From NCBI GenBank assembly GCA_965200245.1, contig CBDATS010000008.1, positions 288,001 to 352,000 on the forward strand: a stretch of 64,000 nt of DNA, read 5' to 3'. The stretch comes from a bacterium (GTDB lineage: Bacteria > UBA8248). A program made the translations under genes and the position numbers. Positions within the stretch are counted from its first letter, which is position 1. Each line of letters opens with the position of its first letter. The notes beneath the pieces were generated by a model, which made no database searches, was not told the origin of the DNA, and was given only the letters and a program-made list of their open reading frames with translations. Below, piece by piece: positions 3,452-47,862 of the stretch.

Positions 3452-4419
3452 ATGGCGCAAGAGGCTCACGCATCAAGAGAAGCTGCCACTCCTCAAGGGC
3501 GGCAATCGGCTTATAACGTACTGGTTCGCTTCGGCCCAGTCATCGGGCTCGCGTTCCTGTGTCTTGTTCTCTCCGTTACGTCCGAAGCCTTCCTGAACCC
3601 GGCGAACTTGATCAATGTCGCTCGCCAAGTCTCCATCAACGCCATCATCGCTGCTGGCATGACGTTCGTCATGATCTCGGGCGGGTTCGACCTATCGGTT
3701 GGCTCCGTCATGGCACTCTCGGGCGTGGTGGGCATCATGGCGATGAATGCCTTCGGTGACGCGGCGGGAATCCTGATCATGTTGGCCGTTGCCCTTTCCT
3801 GTGGCCTTTGGAACGGTCTGCTCGTCGCCTTCGCGCGCATCAACGCCTTTGTGGCCACGCTTGCCGGGATGACCATCTACCACGGCATCGCGCTCGTGGT
3901 GACAGACTCGTTTCCTGTCACGCGCTTCGGGGGCTGGTACCGCAACTTCGGCTAGGGGCACCTCTTCGGGCTGCCGATTCCGATCTACGTTCTCATCATC
4001 GTCTATGTCGTCGCCCACATCGTGCTGACGCGCCGTCGGTCTACGCCGTGGGCGGGAACGAGGAGGCCGCCCGCCTCTCGGGCATCAACGTGGAGCGCAT
4101 CCGCACGTCGGTATTCACCATATGCGGCTTCGGCGTGGGTATCGCCTCGCTTCTGATCATCGGGCGGTTGCAGTCCGCGCAGGCGAACATGGGCATTCAG
4201 GCTGAACTTGACGCCATCGCTGCTGTCGTCATCGGCGGTACGAGCCTCGCAGGTGGGGAGGGGCGTGTATTCGGAACCCTTGCGGGCGCCTTCACCATCG
4301 GGGTTTTAAACAACGGTCTGAACCTACATGACATCAGTGCACACTGGCAGCTTGTGGCCAAGGGCGTCGTCATTGCGCTCGCCGTTATCATTGATCGCCA
4401 ACTCGTGCACAGACAGTGA
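3452..4419 (+). pseudogene. rbsC: Ribose-type sugar ABC permease, disrupted
   Basis: N-half has AAGMTFVMISGGFDLSVG; in-frame TAG at 3953-3955; read-through gives GHLFGLPIPIYVLIIVYVVAHIVLTR; frameshift/deletion at ~4033-4035; C-half YAVGGNEEAARLSG...ELDAIAAVVIGGTSLAGGEG is in another frame. Confidence 0.88.
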
Positions 4420-37394: not shown

Positions 37395-38492
37395 TCAGGA
37401 ATATCCCGGCTCATCCTCAGAAGTCGCGTAGAAGCGGAAGTAGGCGAGGGCAGCATATGCTTTCGCCTCGATGTGGTCGTCTTGAATCGTCAGCTTGACG
37501 TGGTTGATTCCCTTGTAGAGGATGGACATGCCTTTTTCCTCGAAAATCCTCTCGACCGCCGGGAAGTCGCGCAGACCTTCGCCCTTCTCAGGCAAACACC
37601 ATCGCATCTGTTCTAGGTAGTCCAACACGGAACTCCAGGCGTTGCGCCCCGACGTCAACCAGTAATTGAGGTTCGAGGGTTGTCTCGGCCTGTACATATC
37701 GAGTCCCAGGCGCGGCCCTACGCCGTCTGCACCGACATCGGACGACAGGCGGAAGATCGGTGTCAGATGGTGCATCTCTTCTATGATGTCCATCACCTTC
37801 TGGGTGGGGCCGTCCCATTTCAGGCGCTTCAGGAAAGCGGGTACGTTGCGCTGCTTCAGGTCATCGATGACGAGTCGAATATAGCGCGGTTCGCGCTCGG
37901 CCACGGCACCTATCTGGTCCACCACGCCGCTACGGGGCAGGGCGGCGAAGACGCGCTCCACGGCGATTCGCTCCTTCTCGTTCTCGTTCCAGCCGACGGC
38001 GCTCGCGACGGCGGCGGCCAGATTGTCGGGGGTTCGCTCGCGTGCAGTTTGTTCGTCGAGTTCAGTTTGCGGCTTGAGTGCCAGAAACACACCAGGGGCC
38101 AGGTGCCGTCCCGGAGGGACTTTCACGATGTCATATCCGAGCATCGACGCACGAAACCAGCCTGCCAGAGAGGGTTCAGAAGGGGGTCCCATCCCTTTTA
38201 TTCGGGAATAGGCCCGGCTCAGGGCCACCTCGGAAGCGTTGGCTCCCGTTTCCTCGCCACGGCGGATGAAATACTCCATGGAGGAACGCCCTGGCTCAAG
38301 CGAGACGAAATAATCGGCCGCAGGTTCAGGTTCGTTCAGCCGGAACTCGAATGCCGCGTAGTTCAAAGTCAGCCAACTGGGCAGGTCGCCGACGCGCTCC
38401 AGCAGGCACCCCCACCACGGGTCGTCCAGCAAGGTGGGGGGAATGAAGCGACGCAGCCTTGGGAAAGCATCTCCGAAACTCTCAGACATCAT
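37395..38492 (-). CDS. Uncharacterised ~365-aa soluble protein; candidate RiPP maturase (possible aromatic prenyltransferase fold)
   Basis: Directly downstream of and co-oriented with NHLP precursors; motifs FEFRL..ADY, LGYD, QIG..RE...IRL, DV...GVGPRLGLD, NHVKL...EAKAY; gene is well supported, function is inference. Confidence 0.7.
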   Translation of the reverse strand: MMSESFGDAFPRLRRFIPPTLLDDPWWGCLLERVGDLPSWLTLNYAAFEFRLNEPEPAADYFVSLEPGRSSMEYFIRRGEETGANASEVALSRAYSRIKGMGPPSEPSLAGWFRASMLGYDIVKVPPGRHLAPGVFLALKPQTELDEQTARERTPDNLAAAVASAVGWNENEKERIAVERVFAALPRSGVVDQIGAVAEREPRYIRLVIDDLKQRNVPAFLKRLKWDGPTQKVMDIIEEMHHLTPIFRLSSDVGADGVGPRLGLDMYRPRQPSNLNYWLTSGRNAWSSVLDYLEQMRWCLPEKGEGLRDFPAVERIFEEKGMSILYKGINHVKLTIQDDHIEAKAYAALAYFRFYATSEDEPGYS

Positions 38493-38697
38493 CGAACCCT
38501 GTTTCTTTGTCGGTAGGATACACGGTATTCGAGGCGGTGATGAGCGAACATTGCTATCGGATCTCCCTTCCACGAAGGACCGAAAATACGCTCAAACCCG
38601 CATGCCAAGAGTCCGAACAAAGTCCCTTTCGTGGATTTTGGCAGACCGAACGGGCAGACAGTTAAACTGTTTTGTTTGATATAGCCTATCGAGAGTT

Positions 38698-38976
38698 TTA
38701 GCTCAAGCTGTTCCATGCGTTGATGAAATTCGCATATGCCTGTGTGCCAGCCGCGACGGCGCTCAACTCCGCCTCGCTCAACTCGGAAGGTGGCAAGACG
38801 AGGTTGAAACTCATGATGCCGTCTTGATGCACACTGATTTGGAACTCCTCGGGAATGGCAACTCCCAACTCCCGCTCCATAGCGGCCTTTGGGTCAGCTA
38901 TTAGCTCGGTGCGGAACGCTTCGTTCTCACTGGCTTTTTTTGCGATTATCTCGCGAACTTCGTCTCCGGTTTTCAT
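38698..38976 (-). CDS. NHLP-leader (nitrile hydratase-like) RiPP precursor; core TQAYANFINAWNSLS
   Basis: I..KA....FR..L.ADPKAA...ELG..IP....I.VH......LVLPP..ELSEAEL.AVAAG leader; GGAG RBS. Confidence 0.92.
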   Translation of the reverse strand: MKTGDEVREIIAKKASENEAFRTELIADPKAAMERELGVAIPEEFQISVHQDGIMSFNLVLPPSELSEAELSAVAAGTQAYANFINAWNSLS

Positions 38977-39347
38977 TGTCTTGAAATCTCCAGATAGCAT
39001 TCGACCGGAAAGGATACTTGAGTCTTCCTTCCTGATTCAGGCAAAGTATAAAATATTGGCGGTTCGGGTTCAACCATATTCCATGCGTTAACGGAATTCG
39101 CAAATGCCTGCGTGCCAGCCAAGTTGGTCCTCAACTTCGCCTCGCTCAACTCGGCCCGCGTCAATACGAAATTGATGATCAAGGTACCGTCTTGATGCAC
39201 GCTGAACTGGAGCACCTCGGGAATGGCAATTCCCAACTCGCGCTGCATGGCGACCTTGGGGTACACCTGCAATGCGGCGCGGAACGTCTCATTTGAGACG
39301 ACCTTGCGAACGATTTCTTCCCACACTCCTTCCAAAGTTTTCACCAC
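38973..39347 (-). CDS. Second, divergent NHLP-leader precursor; core begins TQAFANSVNAWNM, C-terminal extension (possibly decaying)
   Basis: Colinear with first precursor (RELGIAIPE, SVHQDG, ELSEA..LAG|TQA.AN..NAWN); conserved leader residues changed (DPK to YPK, LPP to LTR, EL to KL). Confidence 0.75.
   Translation of the reverse strand: MVKTLEGVWEEIVRKVVSNETFRAALQVYPKVAMQRELGIAIPEVLQFSVHQDGTLIINFVLTRAELSEAKLRTNLAGTQAFANSVNAWNMVEPEPPIFYTLPESGRKTQVSFPVECYLEISRQ
39045..39073 (-). promoter_or_regulatory. Sigma70-like promoter for the intact precursor
   Basis: Minus strand TTGAAC-17 nt-TATACT. Confidence 0.5.
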
Positions 39348-39484
39348 CTCGGGTCCTCATCGTGTGAGCGCCCCAGGGCACCGCCGGGTACTTCGACCTG
39401 CTATGCCAGGTTCCCCTCGCGCGGAGACCTGTGACATAAAACCTTTTCTGCCCTGTACGAGCAAAAATAAGAACAACTCAGTAA

Positions 39485-39512
39485 AGTATATGCGTAGCGT
39501 TCGCTTCGTCAA
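39485..39512 (-). promoter_or_regulatory. Sigma70-like promoter upstream of the RiPP locus
   Basis: Minus strand TTGACG-16 nt-TATACT in AT-rich divergent region. Confidence 0.55.
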
Positions 39513-42394: not shown

Positions 42395-42856
42395 ATGAGG
42401 AGATATTCACGTAATTTGGCTACTTACAAGATACTCATGGTGGACGACGAACCCGATCTCGAAGGTCTCGTGAGTCAGCGCATGCGGCGTGAGATACGAC
42501 GGGGCCTCTATTCGTTCGTATTCGCGCGCAACGGGGCCGAGGCACTCGAGCTGCTGAACGGGGACGATGAAATCGACATCGTCATCACCGACATCAACAT
42601 GCCGGAGATGGATGGCCTCACGCTGCTTGAGCAAATTCCCGCATACGACCCCAAGGTCCGCTGCGTAATCGTTTCCGCCTACGGGGACATGAAGAACATC
42701 CGCACGGCGATGAACCGGGGTGCGTTCGATTTTCTCAACAAACCGATTGATTTCGAGGACCTGCGTCAAACCATCGGCAAGACCGTCGAGCACATCATAA
42801 AAGTCCGGGAGATGTTTGAGGTACGTGGCAGGATGCTGACGGAGGGCGGATCATAG
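42395..42856 (+). CDS. Single-domain response regulator
   Basis: ILMVDDE, TDINMPEMDG, SAYG, KP. Confidence 0.9.
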   Translation: MRRYSRNLATYKILMVDDEPDLEGLVSQRMRREIRRGLYSFVFARNGAEALELLNGDDEIDIVITDINMPEMDGLTLLEQIPAYDPKVRCVIVSAYGDMKNIRTAMNRGAFDFLNKPIDFEDLRQTIGKTVEHIIKVREMFEVRGRMLTEGGS

Positions 42857-44070
42857 TGGAAGAGTCGCACAAGATACTAGTTGTGGATGACGAACCCGAT
42901 CTCGAAGACCTCGTGAAACAGCGCATGCGACGCGAGATACGGCGGGGCCGCTATTCGTTCATATTCGCGCGCAACGGGGCCGAGGCACTTGAGTGCTTGA
43001 GCGATGACAAAGACGGCCATTCCATCGACATGGTGCTCACCGATATCAATATGCCGGTAATGGACGGTCTCACGCTGCTCAAGCAAATTCCATTGGTCGA
43101 CCCCAACATACGTTCGGTGGTCGTCTCCGCCTACGGAGATATGGAAAATATCCGCACAGCGATGAACCGGGGTGCGTTCGACTTCGTCACCAAGCCGATC
43201 GATTTCGAGGATTTGCGGATCACCATCGAGCGGACCCTAGAACATCTCGCCATGCTTCGCGAAGCCCTTGAGGCGCGCGACAAGCTGGTCGCGATCAAGA
43301 GTGACCTTGCTCTGGCCAACAAGATGCAGCAGTCGATTCTAACGACCAAATTTCCAGAGGACTCCAACTTCGAAATATTCGCAGGTATGGTGCCGGCCAG
43401 AGACGTGGGGGGCGATTTCTACGACATAATCGATCTTGGCGATGGCCGCATCAGCGTCACTGTCGCTGACGTTTCGGGCAAGGGAGTGCCCGCCGCGCTT
43501 TTCATGATGTCGAGCTACATGCTGCTCAACAGCGTCACCGTTACGCGCGTGGATTCGGGCAAGGAACTCGGCGAGGTGAATCGTTTTTTACAACCCGGCG
43601 ACGTGCTCCGTGAGGTGAACCGGCGGCTTGAGGAAAACAACGACGCCGGGATGTTTGTCACGGTTTTCCTCTTGTTTTTTGATTCCGCGACAGGAGAAAT
43701 AGTATATGCCAATGGTGGCCACAACCCCCCGGTCATTATTCACGCCGATGGTTCCTCAAGCCTTCTTGCCGAGCAGCCGGGAGTGGCCTTGGGGATTGTG
43801 GCCGAGTTCAACTACGACATGTACAACGCAACTCTCGCGCCCGGCGAGGCTCTCATTCTCTATACCGACGGAGTAACGGAGGCGGAGAACGAGAAGACCG
43901 AGCAGTTTGGCCTTGATCGCCTTCAAGGGATTCTCGGAGGCGCATCACCGATCTCCGCCAGAGAGATCAACACCAAGGTTTTCGAGGCGGTCAACGAATT
44001 TGCTGGCAGTGCGCCCCAATTCGATGATGTCACCTGTCTGACCATTTTCCGCCGTGGTGAGAGCGAATGA
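42856..44070 (+). CDS. Response regulator receiver + SpoIIE/RsbU-type PP2C phosphatase
   Basis: REC domain, then VGGDFYD, ADVSGKG, MFVT, NGGH, YTDGVTEA, DDVT. Confidence 0.94.
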   Translation: MEESHKILVVDDEPDLEDLVKQRMRREIRRGRYSFIFARNGAEALECLSDDKDGHSIDMVLTDINMPVMDGLTLLKQIPLVDPNIRSVVVSAYGDMENIRTAMNRGAFDFVTKPIDFEDLRITIERTLEHLAMLREALEARDKLVAIKSDLALANKMQQSILTTKFPEDSNFEIFAGMVPARDVGGDFYDIIDLGDGRISVTVADVSGKGVPAALFMMSSYMLLNSVTVTRVDSGKELGEVNRFLQPGDVLREVNRRLEENNDAGMFVTVFLLFFDSATGEIVYANGGHNPPVIIHADGSSSLLAEQPGVALGIVAEFNYDMYNATLAPGEALILYTDGVTEAENEKTEQFGLDRLQGILGGASPISAREINTKVFEAVNEFAGSAPQFDDVTCLTIFRRGESE

Positions 44071-44486
44071 GCGCGAAACTTTCATTGACCATGGGGTTCG
44101 AACCCTCGGAACTCCCACAAGTTCAGTCCGCCATCAGTGAGTTCAGCCGAGAGCAGGAGTGGACGTCCGACATCGAATTCCAGGTTGACCTCGTGATCGA
44201 AGAATTGCTCCTGAACGTCGTGAACCACGGCAGCGACGGGGGAGACAATGAGATCAGCCTCGAACTCATCTCGGATGACGATGTGGTGATCATAGAGATC
44301 ATCGACGACGGCAAACCCTTCAACCCACTGACCGACGCGCCCGAACCGGACACAGAATCGGACATCGAAGATCGCGCCGTGGGTGGGCTTGGCATCCATC
44401 TGGTGCTGACGATGATGGACGAGGTGACCTGTCGGCGGGAGAAGGACAGGAACCATATGCGCCTCGTCAAGTTGAGGAACAAATGA
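44067..44486 (+). CDS. RsbW/SpoIIAB-type anti-sigma factor kinase (HATPase_c_2)
   Basis: EELLLNVVNHG, DDGKPFNP, GGLGIHLV..MD. Confidence 0.92.
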   Translation: MSAKLSLTMGFEPSELPQVQSAISEFSREQEWTSDIEFQVDLVIEELLLNVVNHGSDGGDNEISLELISDDDVVIIEIIDDGKPFNPLTDAPEPDTESDIEDRAVGGLGIHLVLTMMDEVTCRREKDRNHMRLVKLRNK

Positions 44487-45661
44487 AGAAGCTGCTCCGC
44501 ACTCGCCGGGCAGTTTTCCTCCTCGCCGCGGCACTTATTTGCTCGGCGTCCGGGGCAGTGGCGGCAGTACCCGGCGTATCCCCCGAGAAAGTTCTGTTCG
44601 GCCAGTCAGCCGCCTTGTCCGGGCCTGCGAAGGCTCTGGGCGAGGACATGAGGCGCGGAATCGAAACCGCCTTCCGCGTTGCGAACTTGCGCGGCGGCGT
44701 TCACGGGCGCCGGCTCGAACTCATTTCCCTCGACGATGCGTATGAACCCGAAGCCGCCGTCCTGAACACCCGGCGACTGATTGAGCAGAGCAAGGTATTC
44801 GCCCTTATCGGGGCGGTCGGCACGCCCACCTCTCGCTCGGCCACCCCGGTCGCCGCAAAGGCGGGCGTTCCCTGCATCGCTCCCCTCACAGGCGCCGCTT
44901 TCCTGCGTGACCCGAAATGGAAGAACATCATCAACCTGCGTGCCTCCTACTTCCAGGAGACCGAGGAGATAGTGAGCCGGCTGATCGGGGATTTGGGCTT
45001 CAAGAAGGTCGCCGTGTTTTATCAGGACGACTCTTTCGGGCTGGCAGGCTACGAAGGCGTACGCTTGGCTCTTGAGCGGCGCAAACTGAAGCCTGTGGTC
45101 ACTGGCGTGTATCCAAGAAATACGACAGCGGTCAAAACGGCCTTGCTCGATATTCGGCGCGCGAACCCCGACGCAGTAATTCTTGTGGGAGCATACAAGC
45201 CGGTCGCTACTTTCATTGCCTGGGCGCGGCGTACAGGTTTCACCCCGATTTTCGCGACGATCTCTTTCGTGGGCGGCAACGCGCTCGTGCGTGAACTTGG
45301 TCCCGCCGGCGTCGGCATCTATGTCACCCAGGTGGTTCCGCCCCCTTCATCGAAAGATATCCAGATAGCGTCGAACTATCGGCGGGATCTGGAGGCCCAC
45401 TCACCCGGCGCTGTTCCGAGTTTCGTGTCCTTCGAGGGCTATATGGCCGGTAGACTCGCCATCCGCGCCCTGGAATTGTGCGGGCGCAACCCCGACCGCC
45501 CCTGCCTGCTCGATGGGTTGCGCCGCGCGGCCACCATCGATCTCGGCGGATTCAAGTTGCGTTACGGCAAGGACGACAACCAGGGTTCGGACGCCGTTTT
45601 CCTCACCATCGTAGGGGAGAGCGGCCGCTACGTTCCGACCGATAAAATGTGGCGGCCCTAA
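44483..45661 (+). CDS. Periplasmic binding protein (LivK-like fold) embedded in signalling operon
   Basis: Signal peptide, GQSAALSGP, GGVHGR, LDDAYEP, VGTPT, RASY, YQDDSFG. Confidence 0.9.
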   Translation: MKKLLRTRRAVFLLAAALICSASGAVAAVPGVSPEKVLFGQSAALSGPAKALGEDMRRGIETAFRVANLRGGVHGRRLELISLDDAYEPEAAVLNTRRLIEQSKVFALIGAVGTPTSRSATPVAAKAGVPCIAPLTGAAFLRDPKWKNIINLRASYFQETEEIVSRLIGDLGFKKVAVFYQDDSFGLAGYEGVRLALERRKLKPVVTGVYPRNTTAVKTALLDIRRANPDAVILVGAYKPVATFIAWARRTGFTPIFATISFVGGNALVRELGPAGVGIYVTQVVPPPSSKDIQIASNYRRDLEAHSPGAVPSFVSFEGYMAGRLAIRALELCGRNPDRPCLLDGLRRAATIDLGGFKLRYGKDDNQGSDAVFLTIVGESGRYVPTDKMWRP

Positions 45662-45672
45662 AGATAAAGACA

Positions 45673-47862
45673 ATGAAGAGCGTACTCAGGAATATTCTGG
45701 ACAAGTGCTACAAGATATCGACGCAGCTCTACCTCAGCATCGGCATTGCTGCCTCCCTTACCGTCGTCGCGAGCGTGGTCGCGTGGATTTCGTTCGCTTA
45801 CGTGGGCAAGGTGCAAAATCGTGTGAATAAGGGCACCGTTCCTTTCCTGGCGAGCGCATTTGAAACGGCCCAGGCAAGCATCGCCCTGGTGGCCGCAGCT
45901 CCTCGTTTGGCCTCGGTCGTGAACCCGGATAATCTAGAGCAAGTCGCCACCGAGGTCGCCAAGGATCAGGAAGCCTTCGAGACGGTGCTGGTGTCACTCA
46001 TACGTCATGGAGATAACGAGGGTATCTCCATGGAAATCAAGAAACTGGGCGACACGCTGACCCAGAACCTCGGAGCTATCAAGCAATTGGTGCTGGAGCG
46101 CTTCAATTTGACCGACCTGCGCGATACGCTCCAACTCCAACTCGCATGGGTGCGCAAGGAACTGACCAATGTCCTCATTCCCGCTATCGACGATCAACTT
46201 TTCTACGTGATGTCGGGCTACCATACAATCAGTGAAGCACCAGACCCCCATGAAAAGCATTTCGCCGAAGAGGGAATCAACCTCTACCGCTACATCGCTG
46301 GTCTGCGCTCGGACGCCACCGTTGCAGCGCAGCTTCTCTCCACTGTTTTCAGCGTGTCGGACGTCGCCCTGATCGAACCGCTGAGCGAGCGCTTCGAAGC
46401 TACTGCGCGCAGCATCAGGCGGCAACTGGACGCTCTCGGGGCGATGCCGGTGCGTGCCACTCTCAAACCTCTTTTCGAGCAGATGATCGAGTTAAGCATC
46501 GGGGAGGAGGGGGGGATCAGCCTGCGCGCGCGCGAGTTGGCACTCGAGAGCAAACAAAAAGAGTTGCTTGCGTTCCACGAATCTTTGGAGTTACAAATCC
46601 TGGCCACCACGAAAAAGCTGGTGAACACGGCCCGCAATAGCGCGCGGCAAGTCACCCAAGATTCCGCTCAGGCGATCAGCATGGGCACCAATATCCTGTT
46701 CGCGCTGGGTGCCATCAGTTTTATCGGCGCCGTGCTGATAGGCTGGCTGTTCATCGGCCGTGTACTCTCGCGTCGGCTCGGGCAACTCTCGGACCGCATG
46801 CGTCGCATGGCCGACGGCGACCTGGAGGAGACGGTCGACATTGGCGGAAAGGACGAAGTGGCGGAGATGTCCGCGGCACTTGAGATCTTCCGTCGCCACG
46901 CCCTGGAGGTGCAGCGCCTGAACTTGGTGGAGAGACTTGCCGAGGAGATCAGGGCCAAGAACGAAGAACTCGAAGGCGCGCTCGGAGATCTGGAGAAAGC
47001 GCAGGATCAGATTGTCATGCGTGAGAAGCTTGCAGCGCTCGGTGAGTTGACGGCGGGCGTTGCCCACGAGATCAGGAATCCGCTGAACTTCATCAAGAAT
47101 TTTTCGGAAGTTTCCGAGGAACTGATGGAGGAATTGTTGGAAGAACTGGATAAGGTGGCACATCACGAGGGCAACGGGCAGGAGAACGGACAAAAAGCGG
47201 ACGAGGGGGAGAAAAAACAGGAGGAGGAAGACCCCTACGAGCTTATCACCGAAATCGGAGAGGACCTCACTGGCAACCTCAAGCGCATCCGCGAGCACGG
47301 AGAGCGGGCCAACAACATCGTGGAGAGCATGCTCCAGATGGGTAGGGGTTCGGGCGAAACGCAACCGGCCAACGTGAACAAACTGATCGACGAGCATACG
47401 CGTCTTGCCTATCACAGTGCCAAGGCGGCGGACCCGAATTTCAACCTCACGATCGACTGGGACCTCGACCCCGACATGGTGGAATTCGACGTTATTCCGC
47501 AGGATCTGGGCCGCGTCTTCCTCAATATGGTGAGCAATGCTTGCTATGCCACCGACGAGAAGCGTCGGGAGCTCGCCGCCTCGCCGGACGGGAACAAGCC
47601 TCCCTACGATCCTATTCTCATGATTGTCACCAAGTGCAGGCCGAACGACGTTGAGGTTCGCATTCGTGACAACGGAAGCGGAATGCCGCCCGAGGTCATC
47701 GAGAAGATTTTCACCCCCTTCTTCACGACCAAGCCGACGGACAAGGGCACCGGGCTCGGTCTATCGCTCTCCCACGACATCATTCGCCAGCACGGGGGTA
47801 GCGTACGGGTCGAAACCGAGCCCAACGAATTCACGGAGATGATAATCGAACTGCCCCGTTGA
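45673..47862 (+). CDS. Membrane sensor histidine kinase (TorS-like helical periplasmic domain, HAMP, HisKA, HATPase)
   Basis: Two TM segments, HAMP (GDL...DEVAEM), AHEIRNPL, N..SNA, DNGSG, PFFTTK, GTGLGL. Confidence 0.93.
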   Translation: MKSVLRNILDKCYKISTQLYLSIGIAASLTVVASVVAWISFAYVGKVQNRVNKGTVPFLASAFETAQASIALVAAAPRLASVVNPDNLEQVATEVAKDQEAFETVLVSLIRHGDNEGISMEIKKLGDTLTQNLGAIKQLVLERFNLTDLRDTLQLQLAWVRKELTNVLIPAIDDQLFYVMSGYHTISEAPDPHEKHFAEEGINLYRYIAGLRSDATVAAQLLSTVFSVSDVALIEPLSERFEATARSIRRQLDALGAMPVRATLKPLFEQMIELSIGEEGGISLRARELALESKQKELLAFHESLELQILATTKKLVNTARNSARQVTQDSAQAISMGTNILFALGAISFIGAVLIGWLFIGRVLSRRLGQLSDRMRRMADGDLEETVDIGGKDEVAEMSAALEIFRRHALEVQRLNLVERLAEEIRAKNEELEGALGDLEKAQDQIVMREKLAALGELTAGVAHEIRNPLNFIKNFSEVSEELMEELLEELDKVAHHEGNGQENGQKADEGEKKQEEEDPYELITEIGEDLTGNLKRIREHGERANNIVESMLQMGRGSGETQPANVNKLIDEHTRLAYHSAKAADPNFNLTIDWDLDPDMVEFDVIPQDLGRVFLNMVSNACYATDEKRRELAASPDGNKPPYDPILMIVTKCRPNDVEVRIRDNGSGMPPEVIEKIFTPFFTTKPTDKGTGLGLSLSHDIIRQHGGSVRVETEPNEFTEMIIELPR

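Follow-up and report, generated by a model that had tools for sequence, protein, structure and literature searches.

A predicted ABBA prenyltransferase of an unnamed family is encoded beside NHLP-type peptide precursors in a UBA8248 bacterium and in related loci from other phyla

We analyzed a stretch of 64,000 nucleotides (hereafter the window) from a bacterium of the UBA8248 lineage (assembly GCA_965200245.1, contig CBDATS010000008.1, positions 288,001 to 352,000), in which two tandem genes for precursor peptides with NHLP leaders, precursor B (pB) and precursor A (pA), are followed by a gene for a 365-amino-acid protein (37395..38492). Coordinates of the locus are positions in the window, and all of its features lie on the minus strand. 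According to its structural model, the 365-amino-acid enzyme is a full-length aromatic prenyltransferase of the alpha-beta-beta-alpha (ABBA, PT-barrel) fold, belonging to a sequence family without a name. We consider it probable that the locus is a satellite module for a prenylated ribosomal peptide, in which a leader-guided peptide prenyltransferase acts on Trp88 of pA and an NHLP-type system encoded at a distance exports the product. The structured NHLP leader would be the docking site of the enzyme, in analogy to MppC and Nif11 leaders and to PalQ and an NHLP precursor, and a prenyl diphosphate (dimethylallyl diphosphate, geranyl diphosphate, or longer) would be held in the barrel by R51, R200, R206, R261, K327, H331, K333, K344, and Y346. 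The prenyl cation would then be transferred to the indole of Trp88 within the invariant A-W-N, with the invariant E49 as a candidate indole-polarizing residue or base. Finally, the leader would be cut after A-G and the 15-residue lipopeptide exported, cleavage and export both being carried out by a TIGR03796 peptidase/ATP-binding cassette (ABC) protein, a TIGR03797-like second ABC protein, and HlyD-like proteins encoded approximately 100 kb away. The product could serve in signaling, as with ComX, or could have membrane activity.

The AlphaFold2 model of the enzyme, built on 27 relatives, has a pLDDT of 89 and a pTM of 0.88 and, over its full length, alternates between helices and 11 strand elements. 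Comparison of this model with the PDB by Foldseek gave 76 matches at E<=1e-3, and among the matches listed all are ABBA prenyltransferases. All of the first 19 ranks in a Foldseek-independent search over 48,161 representative chains went to ABBA prenyltransferases, with Z from 16.0 down to 11.3 and alignments of 255-307 residues across model residues 1-355; the chain at rank 20 has an unrelated fold (Z 5.6). The best structural match is MpnD (Z 16.0, 298 residues aligned); DMATS1, CymD, FgaPT2, and FunA score at Z of approximately 15, NphB/Orf2 at 13.1, PatF at 12.2, PagF at 11.5, and DciF at 11.3. In a second structural pass, 132 chains were found at Z>=8, the best 50 of which are all ABBA prenyltransferases, and no isoprenoid synthase occurs among the structural matches listed for the enzyme model. 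Leads from a protein atlas were likewise clusters of DUF5838, Trp_DMAT, and PTase_Orf2 (0.88-0.89). The initial annotation had described the enzyme as unknown; it still has no named family, but the ABBA prenyltransferase barrel of its model shows what kind of enzyme it is.

In an exhaustive HMMER search, 821 clusters (at 50% identity) belong to the family at E<=1e-3; the number falls to 262 at a threshold of E<=1e-10 and to 82 at E<=1e-30. Across 53 members, down to 22% identity, E49, D121, K333, and Y346 are invariant and all four are kept in the window enzyme; D60, E119, R200, R206, H331, and K344 are conserved in at least 90% of them. These conserved residues sit on barrel strands at alternating positions, an arrangement that would fit a diphosphate-binding barrel lumen. 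One family member (P0205) combines the enzyme and an NHLP precursor in a single reading frame, the precursor core, VEPVPPPSW, ending in Trp. Another (P0206) joins a squalene-hopene-cyclase-type domain (32.5 bits versus a cut-off of 26.1) to the enzyme's C-terminal half, which may be taken as an isolated yet independent indication of isoprenoid chemistry. No further fused forms were found among proteins of 659-2000 amino acids, which is weak evidence.

Examination of the genes surrounding enzyme relatives ties the family closely to NHLP precursors. We collected 77 loci with such relatives from one-genome-per-species contigs, labeled as Nitrospinota, Gamma- and Alphaproteobacteria, Binatia, Dehalococcoidia/Chloroflexota, Spirochaetia, Acidobacteriota, Gemmatimonadota, and Acidimicrobiia, and detected NHLP open reading frames (ORFs) in them with a hidden Markov model built on the NHLP leaders of the window's own genome. 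Of the 77 loci, 73 contain an NHLP ORF, and tandem arrays reach as many as 12. The closest precursor scores at or above the TIGR03793 cut-off in 71/73 loci, is co-oriented with the enzyme in 64/73, and lies within 266 nt of it in 65/73 (median distance 149 nt); in all 13 orthologous loci (L010-L022), a single precursor is found approximately 200 nt upstream of the enzyme gene. Leaders in the related loci (n=214) end mostly in GG (171), followed by AG (34) and GA (4). The same pairing is observed within the genome that carries the window: 38-39 NHLP precursor ORFs are distributed over five contigs (39 matches per 3.68 Mb, or approximately 1 per 94 kb), and an NHLP match lies within 2.5 kb of all eight places that encode enzyme relatives (identified by tblastn plus a profile search), which is far beyond chance. 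The proposal of the initial annotation that the locus is a small module for a peptide made on the ribosome and modified after translation (RiPP), with a non-standard maturase, therefore gains strong support from the neighborhoods of the enzyme's homologs.

The cores encoded beside the family point to Trp as the likely modified residue. After removal of duplicates, 165 distinct cores of 4-39 residues (median 15) were collected, leaving out two cores of more than 60 amino acids and matches whose leader alignment ended early. Trp occurs in 152 of these 165 cores; it is the C-terminal residue in 68 and lies among the last five residues in 96, and it makes up 8.7% of core residues versus 0.1% of leader residues. 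Among 13 aligned precursors of the window clade, only A87-W88-N89 is invariant in the core; the preceding N is nearly invariant and the rest varies freely. The enzyme tree was built quickly and has some rows on long branches (L011 and L021 are misplaced), and it was used only for a well-supported clade of 12 rows; this clade is fully supported, includes the window enzyme, and is associated with precursors that all carry NAWN. Neither the cores of pA and pB nor those of the 12 orthologs contain Cys, and the precursor cores are linear and without recognition-sequence flanks. Because an indole-type prenyltransferase fold adjoins cores whose one constant is Trp, we propose Trp88 as the acceptor. 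A conserved Trp had already been singled out as a likely modification site from the window alone, and this idea has been strengthened by the orthologs; the accompanying proposal that Y4, F7, I8, and W11 of the core share one helix face has not, as positions 4, 7, and 8 vary among the orthologs.

A peptide prenyltransferase might also modify an acceptor other than Trp88, such as Tyr4 of the pA core, the new N-terminus created by cleavage, or another side chain. Thirteen of the 165 cores have no Trp and 11 of these 13 have Tyr, and cores beside paralogs in the same genome include NLYY and YRLDIF. Cyanobactin prenyltransferases use Tyr, Ser/Thr, Arg, and His as acceptors. More generally, ABBA peptide prenyltransferases modify many residue types (PMC12715784). 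However, the Y at core position 4 of pA is replaced by F in pB and by W, M, or P in orthologs, whereas W88 is invariant in 13/13 precursors; the Trp-less cores fall in other branches of the enzyme tree and the great majority of cores contain Trp. We judge a different acceptor to be unlikely at this locus.

Several observations weigh against a peptide prenyltransferase acting here. No Pfam or NCBIfam model matches the 365-amino-acid enzyme, and Pfam gives nothing at E<=1, including the prenyltransferase families PF11991 (Trp_DMAT), PF11468 (PTase_Orf2), and PF19156 (DUF5838). None of 16 further family members scanned against Pfam at E<=0.1 reached the cut-off, and precomputed Pfam annotation is empty for 50 of the 52 family matches listed, the other two carrying non-prenyltransferase domains. 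Profile searches against the PDB gave no matches with 27 members and six chance matches (E 0.64-0.99), none of them a prenyltransferase, with 53 members. Sequence identity to solved prenyltransferases is only 5-11% (root-mean-square deviation 4.2-5.1 Å), and therefore the enzyme would represent a distant, so far unnamed branch of the ABBA superfamily. A shared fold is also no proof of activity, and the function proposed here was assigned from the predicted fold and gene context; similarly, the lumen-facing orientation of the conserved residues is suggested by strand periodicity only. Four of the 77 loci have no precursor within the DNA examined, and JmjC, methyltransferase, FAD oxidase, and P450 proteins encoded in some loci could also act on aromatic residues. 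RNA-derived contigs that cover the locus come from one study, possibly the source of this DNA, and may reflect DNA carry-over. Finally, two features of the locus itself belong on this side. Residue 119 of the window enzyme is Gly (GGA, codon 38136-38138, minus strand), in place of the Glu that at least 90% of the family have in the L-E-Y-D motif at the end of strand 3, which could change or weaken activity; it is the sole conserved position at which the window enzyme deviates, and Glu is encoded there (GAA/GAG) in 5/5 orthologs checked. In addition, pB may be a decaying copy, because it scores under the NHLP cut-off and has a read-through tail.

These last two features, pB being diverged and without its normal stop, favor a second alternative, namely that the window enzyme is weakened or dead, or a mere leader binder, and the locus a decaying duplicate module. 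It is further favored by an internal stop in three of the eight paralog places in the genome. ABBA-fold proteins of solved structure in which no activity was detected do exist, PatF being an example. On the other hand, the window ORF is intact and keeps all other invariant and near-invariant residues, and contigs from RNA libraries cover the locus. Ka/Ks between the enzyme gene and five of its orthologs is approximately 0.17/0.75 (~0.23), like that between the orthologs (~0.2), indicating purifying selection. Ka/Ks between pA and pB is 0.3 (0.30/0.90 over the leader), and therefore the pA/pB duplication is old and was not free to drift throughout its history. We leave this alternative only a small probability.

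It is very improbable, in our assessment, that the barrel protein carries out a different reaction on peptides, such as another alkylation, an aromatic cross-link, or the use of a non-isoprenoid diphosphate. The family has no sequence similarity to characterized prenyltransferases, and its named database relatives are all called 'hypothetical protein'; nevertheless, all structural neighbors above Z 8 among the representative chains are prenyltransferases, one member is fused to a terpene-cyclase-type domain, and the conserved basic and Tyr residues of the strands would fit a diphosphate site. Prenylation of a small aromatic metabolite next to incidental precursors is hardly credible at all: the closest structural neighbors (MpnD, CymD, DMATS1, and FgaPT2) do use small molecules or free amino acids, but precursors adjoin the gene, mostly co-oriented, in nearly all related loci from many phyla, an enzyme-precursor fusion exists, and no other biosynthetic genes are present at the window locus.

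The proposed leader-guided prenylation of Trp88 has precedents among known systems. A 2026 review distinguishes three groups of peptide prenyltransferases (eukaryotic, cyanobactin-type, and trans-IDS-like; PMC13290415); since then, one ABBA enzyme that depends on a leader has been reported from a lanthipeptide system (PMC12715784). This enzyme, MppC of Moorena producens PAL, requires the complete Nif11-type leader and geranylates a Trp of a lanthionine-cyclized core. The MppC/MppE pair resembles the window locus in its soluble ABBA prenyltransferase, its long structured leader with L(X)4L, and the Trp in a short core; however, the MppE leader is Nif11-type and MppC prefers a LanM-cyclized core, whereas the window has an NHLP leader and Cys-free cores (PMC12715784). 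Moreover, no macrocyclase gene is found among the 60 ORFs of the window. PalQ/PalX of Paenibacillus alvei is a minimal cluster of an NHLP precursor and a prenyltransferase with a conserved C-terminal Trp (PMC10853753). As in the window, an NHLP-type precursor is accompanied by one prenyltransferase and the core is short with Trp at or near the C-terminus, and the PalX leader enhances the reaction; in contrast, PalQ has an all-helical isoprenoid-synthase (trans-IDS/ComQ-like) fold and requires a terminal Trp (PMC10853753), whereas the modeled window enzyme is a beta-barrel and four residues follow Trp88 in the window core. Since PalQ is helical and the window enzyme is predicted to be a barrel, the same task would have been solved independently by the latter.

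The cyanobactin prenyltransferases PagF, PatF, and DciF (PF19156) share the ABBA barrel and peptide substrates (Z 11.3-12.2); they act after leader removal and without leader recognition (PMC12715784). The window enzyme differs from them in having no PF19156 match at E<=1, in being approximately 60 residues longer, and in its better match to DMATS-type enzymes (Z 15-16). The latter (MpnD, CymD, DMATS1, and FgaPT2; PF11991) are the best structural matches (295-307 residues, whole chain) and use indole acceptors, but their substrates are free Trp, diketopiperazines, and other small molecules, their identity to the window enzyme is 6-11%, and PF11991 does not match it. The short ribosomal peptide made by ComQ/ComX of Bacillus carries a prenylated Trp close to its C-terminus, as the window product would; unlike the window system, ComQ has a trans-IDS-like fold and ComX lacks an NHLP leader (PMC13290415). 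A ComX-like signaling role for the window product is speculation. The srp proteusins of sponge microbiomes are also similar in being widespread NHLP precursors of sponge-associated bacteria with a modified terminal Trp, yet they have LCCCW-type cores processed by a YcaO protein and a brominase (bioRxiv 10.1101/2023.06.09.544420), whereas the genome studied here has no YcaO, the window cores are Cys-free, and their neighbor has a prenyltransferase fold. Full-text literature searches found no ABBA prenyltransferase paired with NHLP precursors; further prenyltransferase gene clusters in the supplement of one study (PMC12715784, Figures S67-S71) may bear on this novelty.

The chemistry and logic of leader-guided peptide prenylation are thus already known; what is new is the enzyme family, the combination of leader and fold, and the scale. 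The pairing of enzyme and precursors across many phyla points to an undescribed route to lipid-tagged, Trp-containing peptides. We hold it about evenly balanced whether the unnamed ABBA-fold family as a whole (~800 clusters at 50% identity) acts as leader-guided Trp prenyltransferases for NHLP precursors and, with arrays of up to 12 precursors, produces libraries of short linear prenyl-Trp lipopeptides that are shared horizontally among sponge-associated bacteria of at least nine phyla. Such products would form a new RiPP class ('prenylated NHLP peptides'), the family would add a third type of enzyme that solves peptide Trp prenylation independently of the cyanobactin-type and ComQ/PalQ-type enzymes, and the peptides might be ComX-like signals of symbiont communities. 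Identical or near-identical cores together with closely related enzymes are found in records of Binatia, Gammaproteobacteria, and Alphaproteobacteria (FERHEGFYNINW, GDWNITSDW, and ARPRGQEWDPRTW; L029, L047, L063, L046, L031, and others), and a VDVYP[VI] core is found in both Acidimicrobiia and Chloroflexota. Because near-identical cores occur in different phyla, the module looks horizontally mobile, and metagenome binning errors could contribute to this pattern. Peptide prenylation is sought after as a means to lipidate peptides, and here gene context connects a large un-annotated family with a prenyltransferase barrel to over 160 different natural substrate cores, nearly all with Trp. If the proposal is true, it would define a new class of ribosomal lipopeptides, supply a ready set of enzyme/substrate pairs for engineering, and give a function to many 'hypothetical proteins' and to orphan NHLP precursors in symbiont genomes, of which the present genome alone has 38-39.

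Within the window's own genus, the enzyme family was found in 15 of 22 other species genomes, and in 0 of 18 more distant relatives searched. In the genome itself, NHLP cores are nearly all very short and rich in Tyr and Trp (YWM, GYLWPY, YYDWDDAF, APWYNDGWPE, and others). We also sought an internal control in NHLP cores far from prenyltransferase genes in this genome and obtained none that was usable, because nearly all 38 cores are short and Tyr/Trp-rich wherever they are located. Three of the eight places with enzyme relatives have one internal stop each, copies of several loci occur on both contig C2 and contig C15, and the contamination estimate is 8%. The genome encodes two polyprenyl diphosphate synthases, a further link to isoprenoids. 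No YcaO was found in the genome; a search for LanC-like proteins also gave no match there, a weak negative since the search control gave nothing either. At one locus (L088, C2:3352-8393), two NHLP precursors, of which one has NLYY as its core, and two enzyme paralogs flank a cytochrome P450 gene (C2:3836-5128); we take a short Tyr-rich core beside a P450 to resemble the biaryl cross-linked peptides.

The locus is minimal, as initially described, but the genome is not devoid of an export route. A genome-wide search for a C39 peptidase-ABC exporter, which had been suggested as a follow-up, identified a set at C8:219599-225625, on the same contig but outside the window and approximately 100 kb from the locus, consisting of a TIGR03796 peptidase/ABC protein, a TIGR03797-like ABC protein, and a HlyD-like protein. 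The TIGR03796 protein (C8:222519-224708; 902.2 bits versus a cut-off of 853.3) is the sole C39 match in the genome. Both the TIGR03797-like ABC protein, which has 980 amino acids and a long N-terminal extension (683.9 versus 709.4), and a TIGR03794 match at the same site (81.9 versus 156.2) score under their cut-offs. The set forms part of a locus (L087, C8:216386-225625) in which it stands beside an enzyme paralog broken by a TAG codon and an AcrB-type pump. Among the 77 related loci, a TIGR03797-like ABC protein is encoded beside the enzyme in 22.

Runs labeled 'sponge metagenome' contain the window stretch, and two metatranscriptome runs (the one study mentioned above) contain 64-67% of its sampled words; runs X8 and X9 contain small shares of the stretch, from which no conclusion was drawn. 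Contigs from the metatranscriptome runs have zero mismatches in the precursor region, and one contig of 1134 nt (38322-39455) reaches from pB through pA into the 5' end of the enzyme gene. This shows that the locus is present in RNA libraries, which is not proof of a transcript or an operon. The RNA-run contigs stop at 39455 and 39403, downstream of a promoter-like site at 39485..39512, with nothing beyond 39455, and a further run of unrecorded library type crosses this site. The contig ends give a weak hint that a promoter lies at 39485..39512.

At the level of the genes, the initial annotation had reported two tandem NHLP-leader precursors ending in AG together with a co-oriented ORF, and this arrangement was confirmed on the minus strand. 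The proposed check against the NHLP leader model (TIGR03793, curated cut-off 50.9) bears out pA (62.4 bits) but not pB (31.1 bits, E 1.6e-7), which we therefore count only as a diverged relative. The description of the locus as proteusin-type holds only for the leader; polytheonamide-like proteusins are processed by radical SAM epimerases or methyltransferases encoded nearby, and no radical SAM domain was found among the 60 window ORFs. Nor did a Pfam scan of these ORFs (E<=1e-5) detect any YcaO, LanM, halogenase, or C39 peptidase/exporter, in agreement with the first reading of the window, and PatA/PatG-type proteases are also absent from the 60 ORFs.

Precursor pA (38698..38976) has 92 amino acids, with a 77-amino-acid NHLP leader containing an L(X)4L motif and ending in ...ELSAVAAG, and a 15-residue core, TQAYANFINAWNSLS. 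The ORF was called mechanically as 38698..39000; its likely start is the ATG at 38976, as 12 orthologs use the corresponding codon, which follows the same GGAG box by 11 nt. Precursor pB (38973..39347) has a diverged NHLP leader with an L(X)4L stretch and the end ...TNLAG, a core, TQAFANSVNAWN, that starts with TQAFANSVNAWNM, and then a 33-residue tail. The L(X)4L stretch is acidic in both leaders (LSEAEL...AVAAG in pA and LSEAKL...TNLAG in pB) and precedes a terminal A-G, a cleavage motif of the Gly-Gly type, in agreement with a published description (PMC12715784). The two precursors are 55% identical. The stop of pB and the start of pA overlap as ATGA at 38973-38976, and the pB tail reads through a promoter-like site of pA, as though an older stop had been lost.

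Sigma70-like promoters had been noted for the locus. Two such sites were indeed found, 5' of pB (39485..39512; TTGACG, 16-nt spacer, TATACT; 10/12 consensus matches) and 5' of pA within the pB tail (39045..39073; TTGAAC, 17-nt spacer, TATACT; 9/12 matches), both on the minus strand, but the signal is weak, with 3 sites per 3 kb in a consensus scan versus 1.3 +/- 0.9 in shuffled sequences. The idea of a duplicated promoter was rejected, the upstream regions of pA and pB having just one 8-mer in common. The spacer between pA and the enzyme gene (38493..38697, 205 nt, minus strand) is conserved, with a mean column identity of 77% across 11 orthologous loci (L010-L022, approximately positions 3801-4000). 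RNAalifold gave no support for an RNA fold of the spacer (covariation term +0.54), and Rfam contained no family matching it, the best hit being a sub-threshold match to msiK (E 0.79). In a predicted spacer helix without covariation support, GCTCATCG pairs with the enzyme start region CGATGATG.

Besides precursors and the TIGR03797-like ABC protein, repeated neighbors of the enzyme in the related loci are JmjC proteins (nine loci), methyltransferases (seven), FAD oxidases (six), and HlyD proteins (five). Neighboring ORFs were grouped by greedy clustering, and only Pfam-confirmed clusters are reported because this clustering picked many antisense shadow ORFs; 83 of 166 singleton ORFs were scanned. 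Among the neighbor ORFs scanned, these singletons included, no radical SAM, YcaO, or LanM protein was found. The JmjC/cupin protein has 517 amino acids and is encoded beside the enzyme in nine loci (L024, L042, L045, L047, L048, L061, L063, L073, and one other), where the motif FWDD[FY] is often present in the cores; a role as an additional tailoring enzyme is possible for it. In two Vicinamibacterales loci (L066:5121-5843 and L072:5190-5945), an NHLP leader and a Trp-containing stretch run into a C-terminal region of approximately 160 amino acids starting C-F-R-P-D-A-L-V-R-L-A-D-G, which we take to resemble a Hint/intein-type domain.

Around the window locus, a Liv-type amino-acid ABC transporter operon lies downstream, and a xanthine/uracil-type permease is encoded upstream on the opposite strand. 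Further upstream, at a distance of 3 kb and also on the other strand, the region 42395-47859 contains a cluster of signaling genes that encode two response regulators, one of them carrying a SpoIIE phosphatase domain, as well as a HAMP histidine kinase and a periplasmic binding protein.

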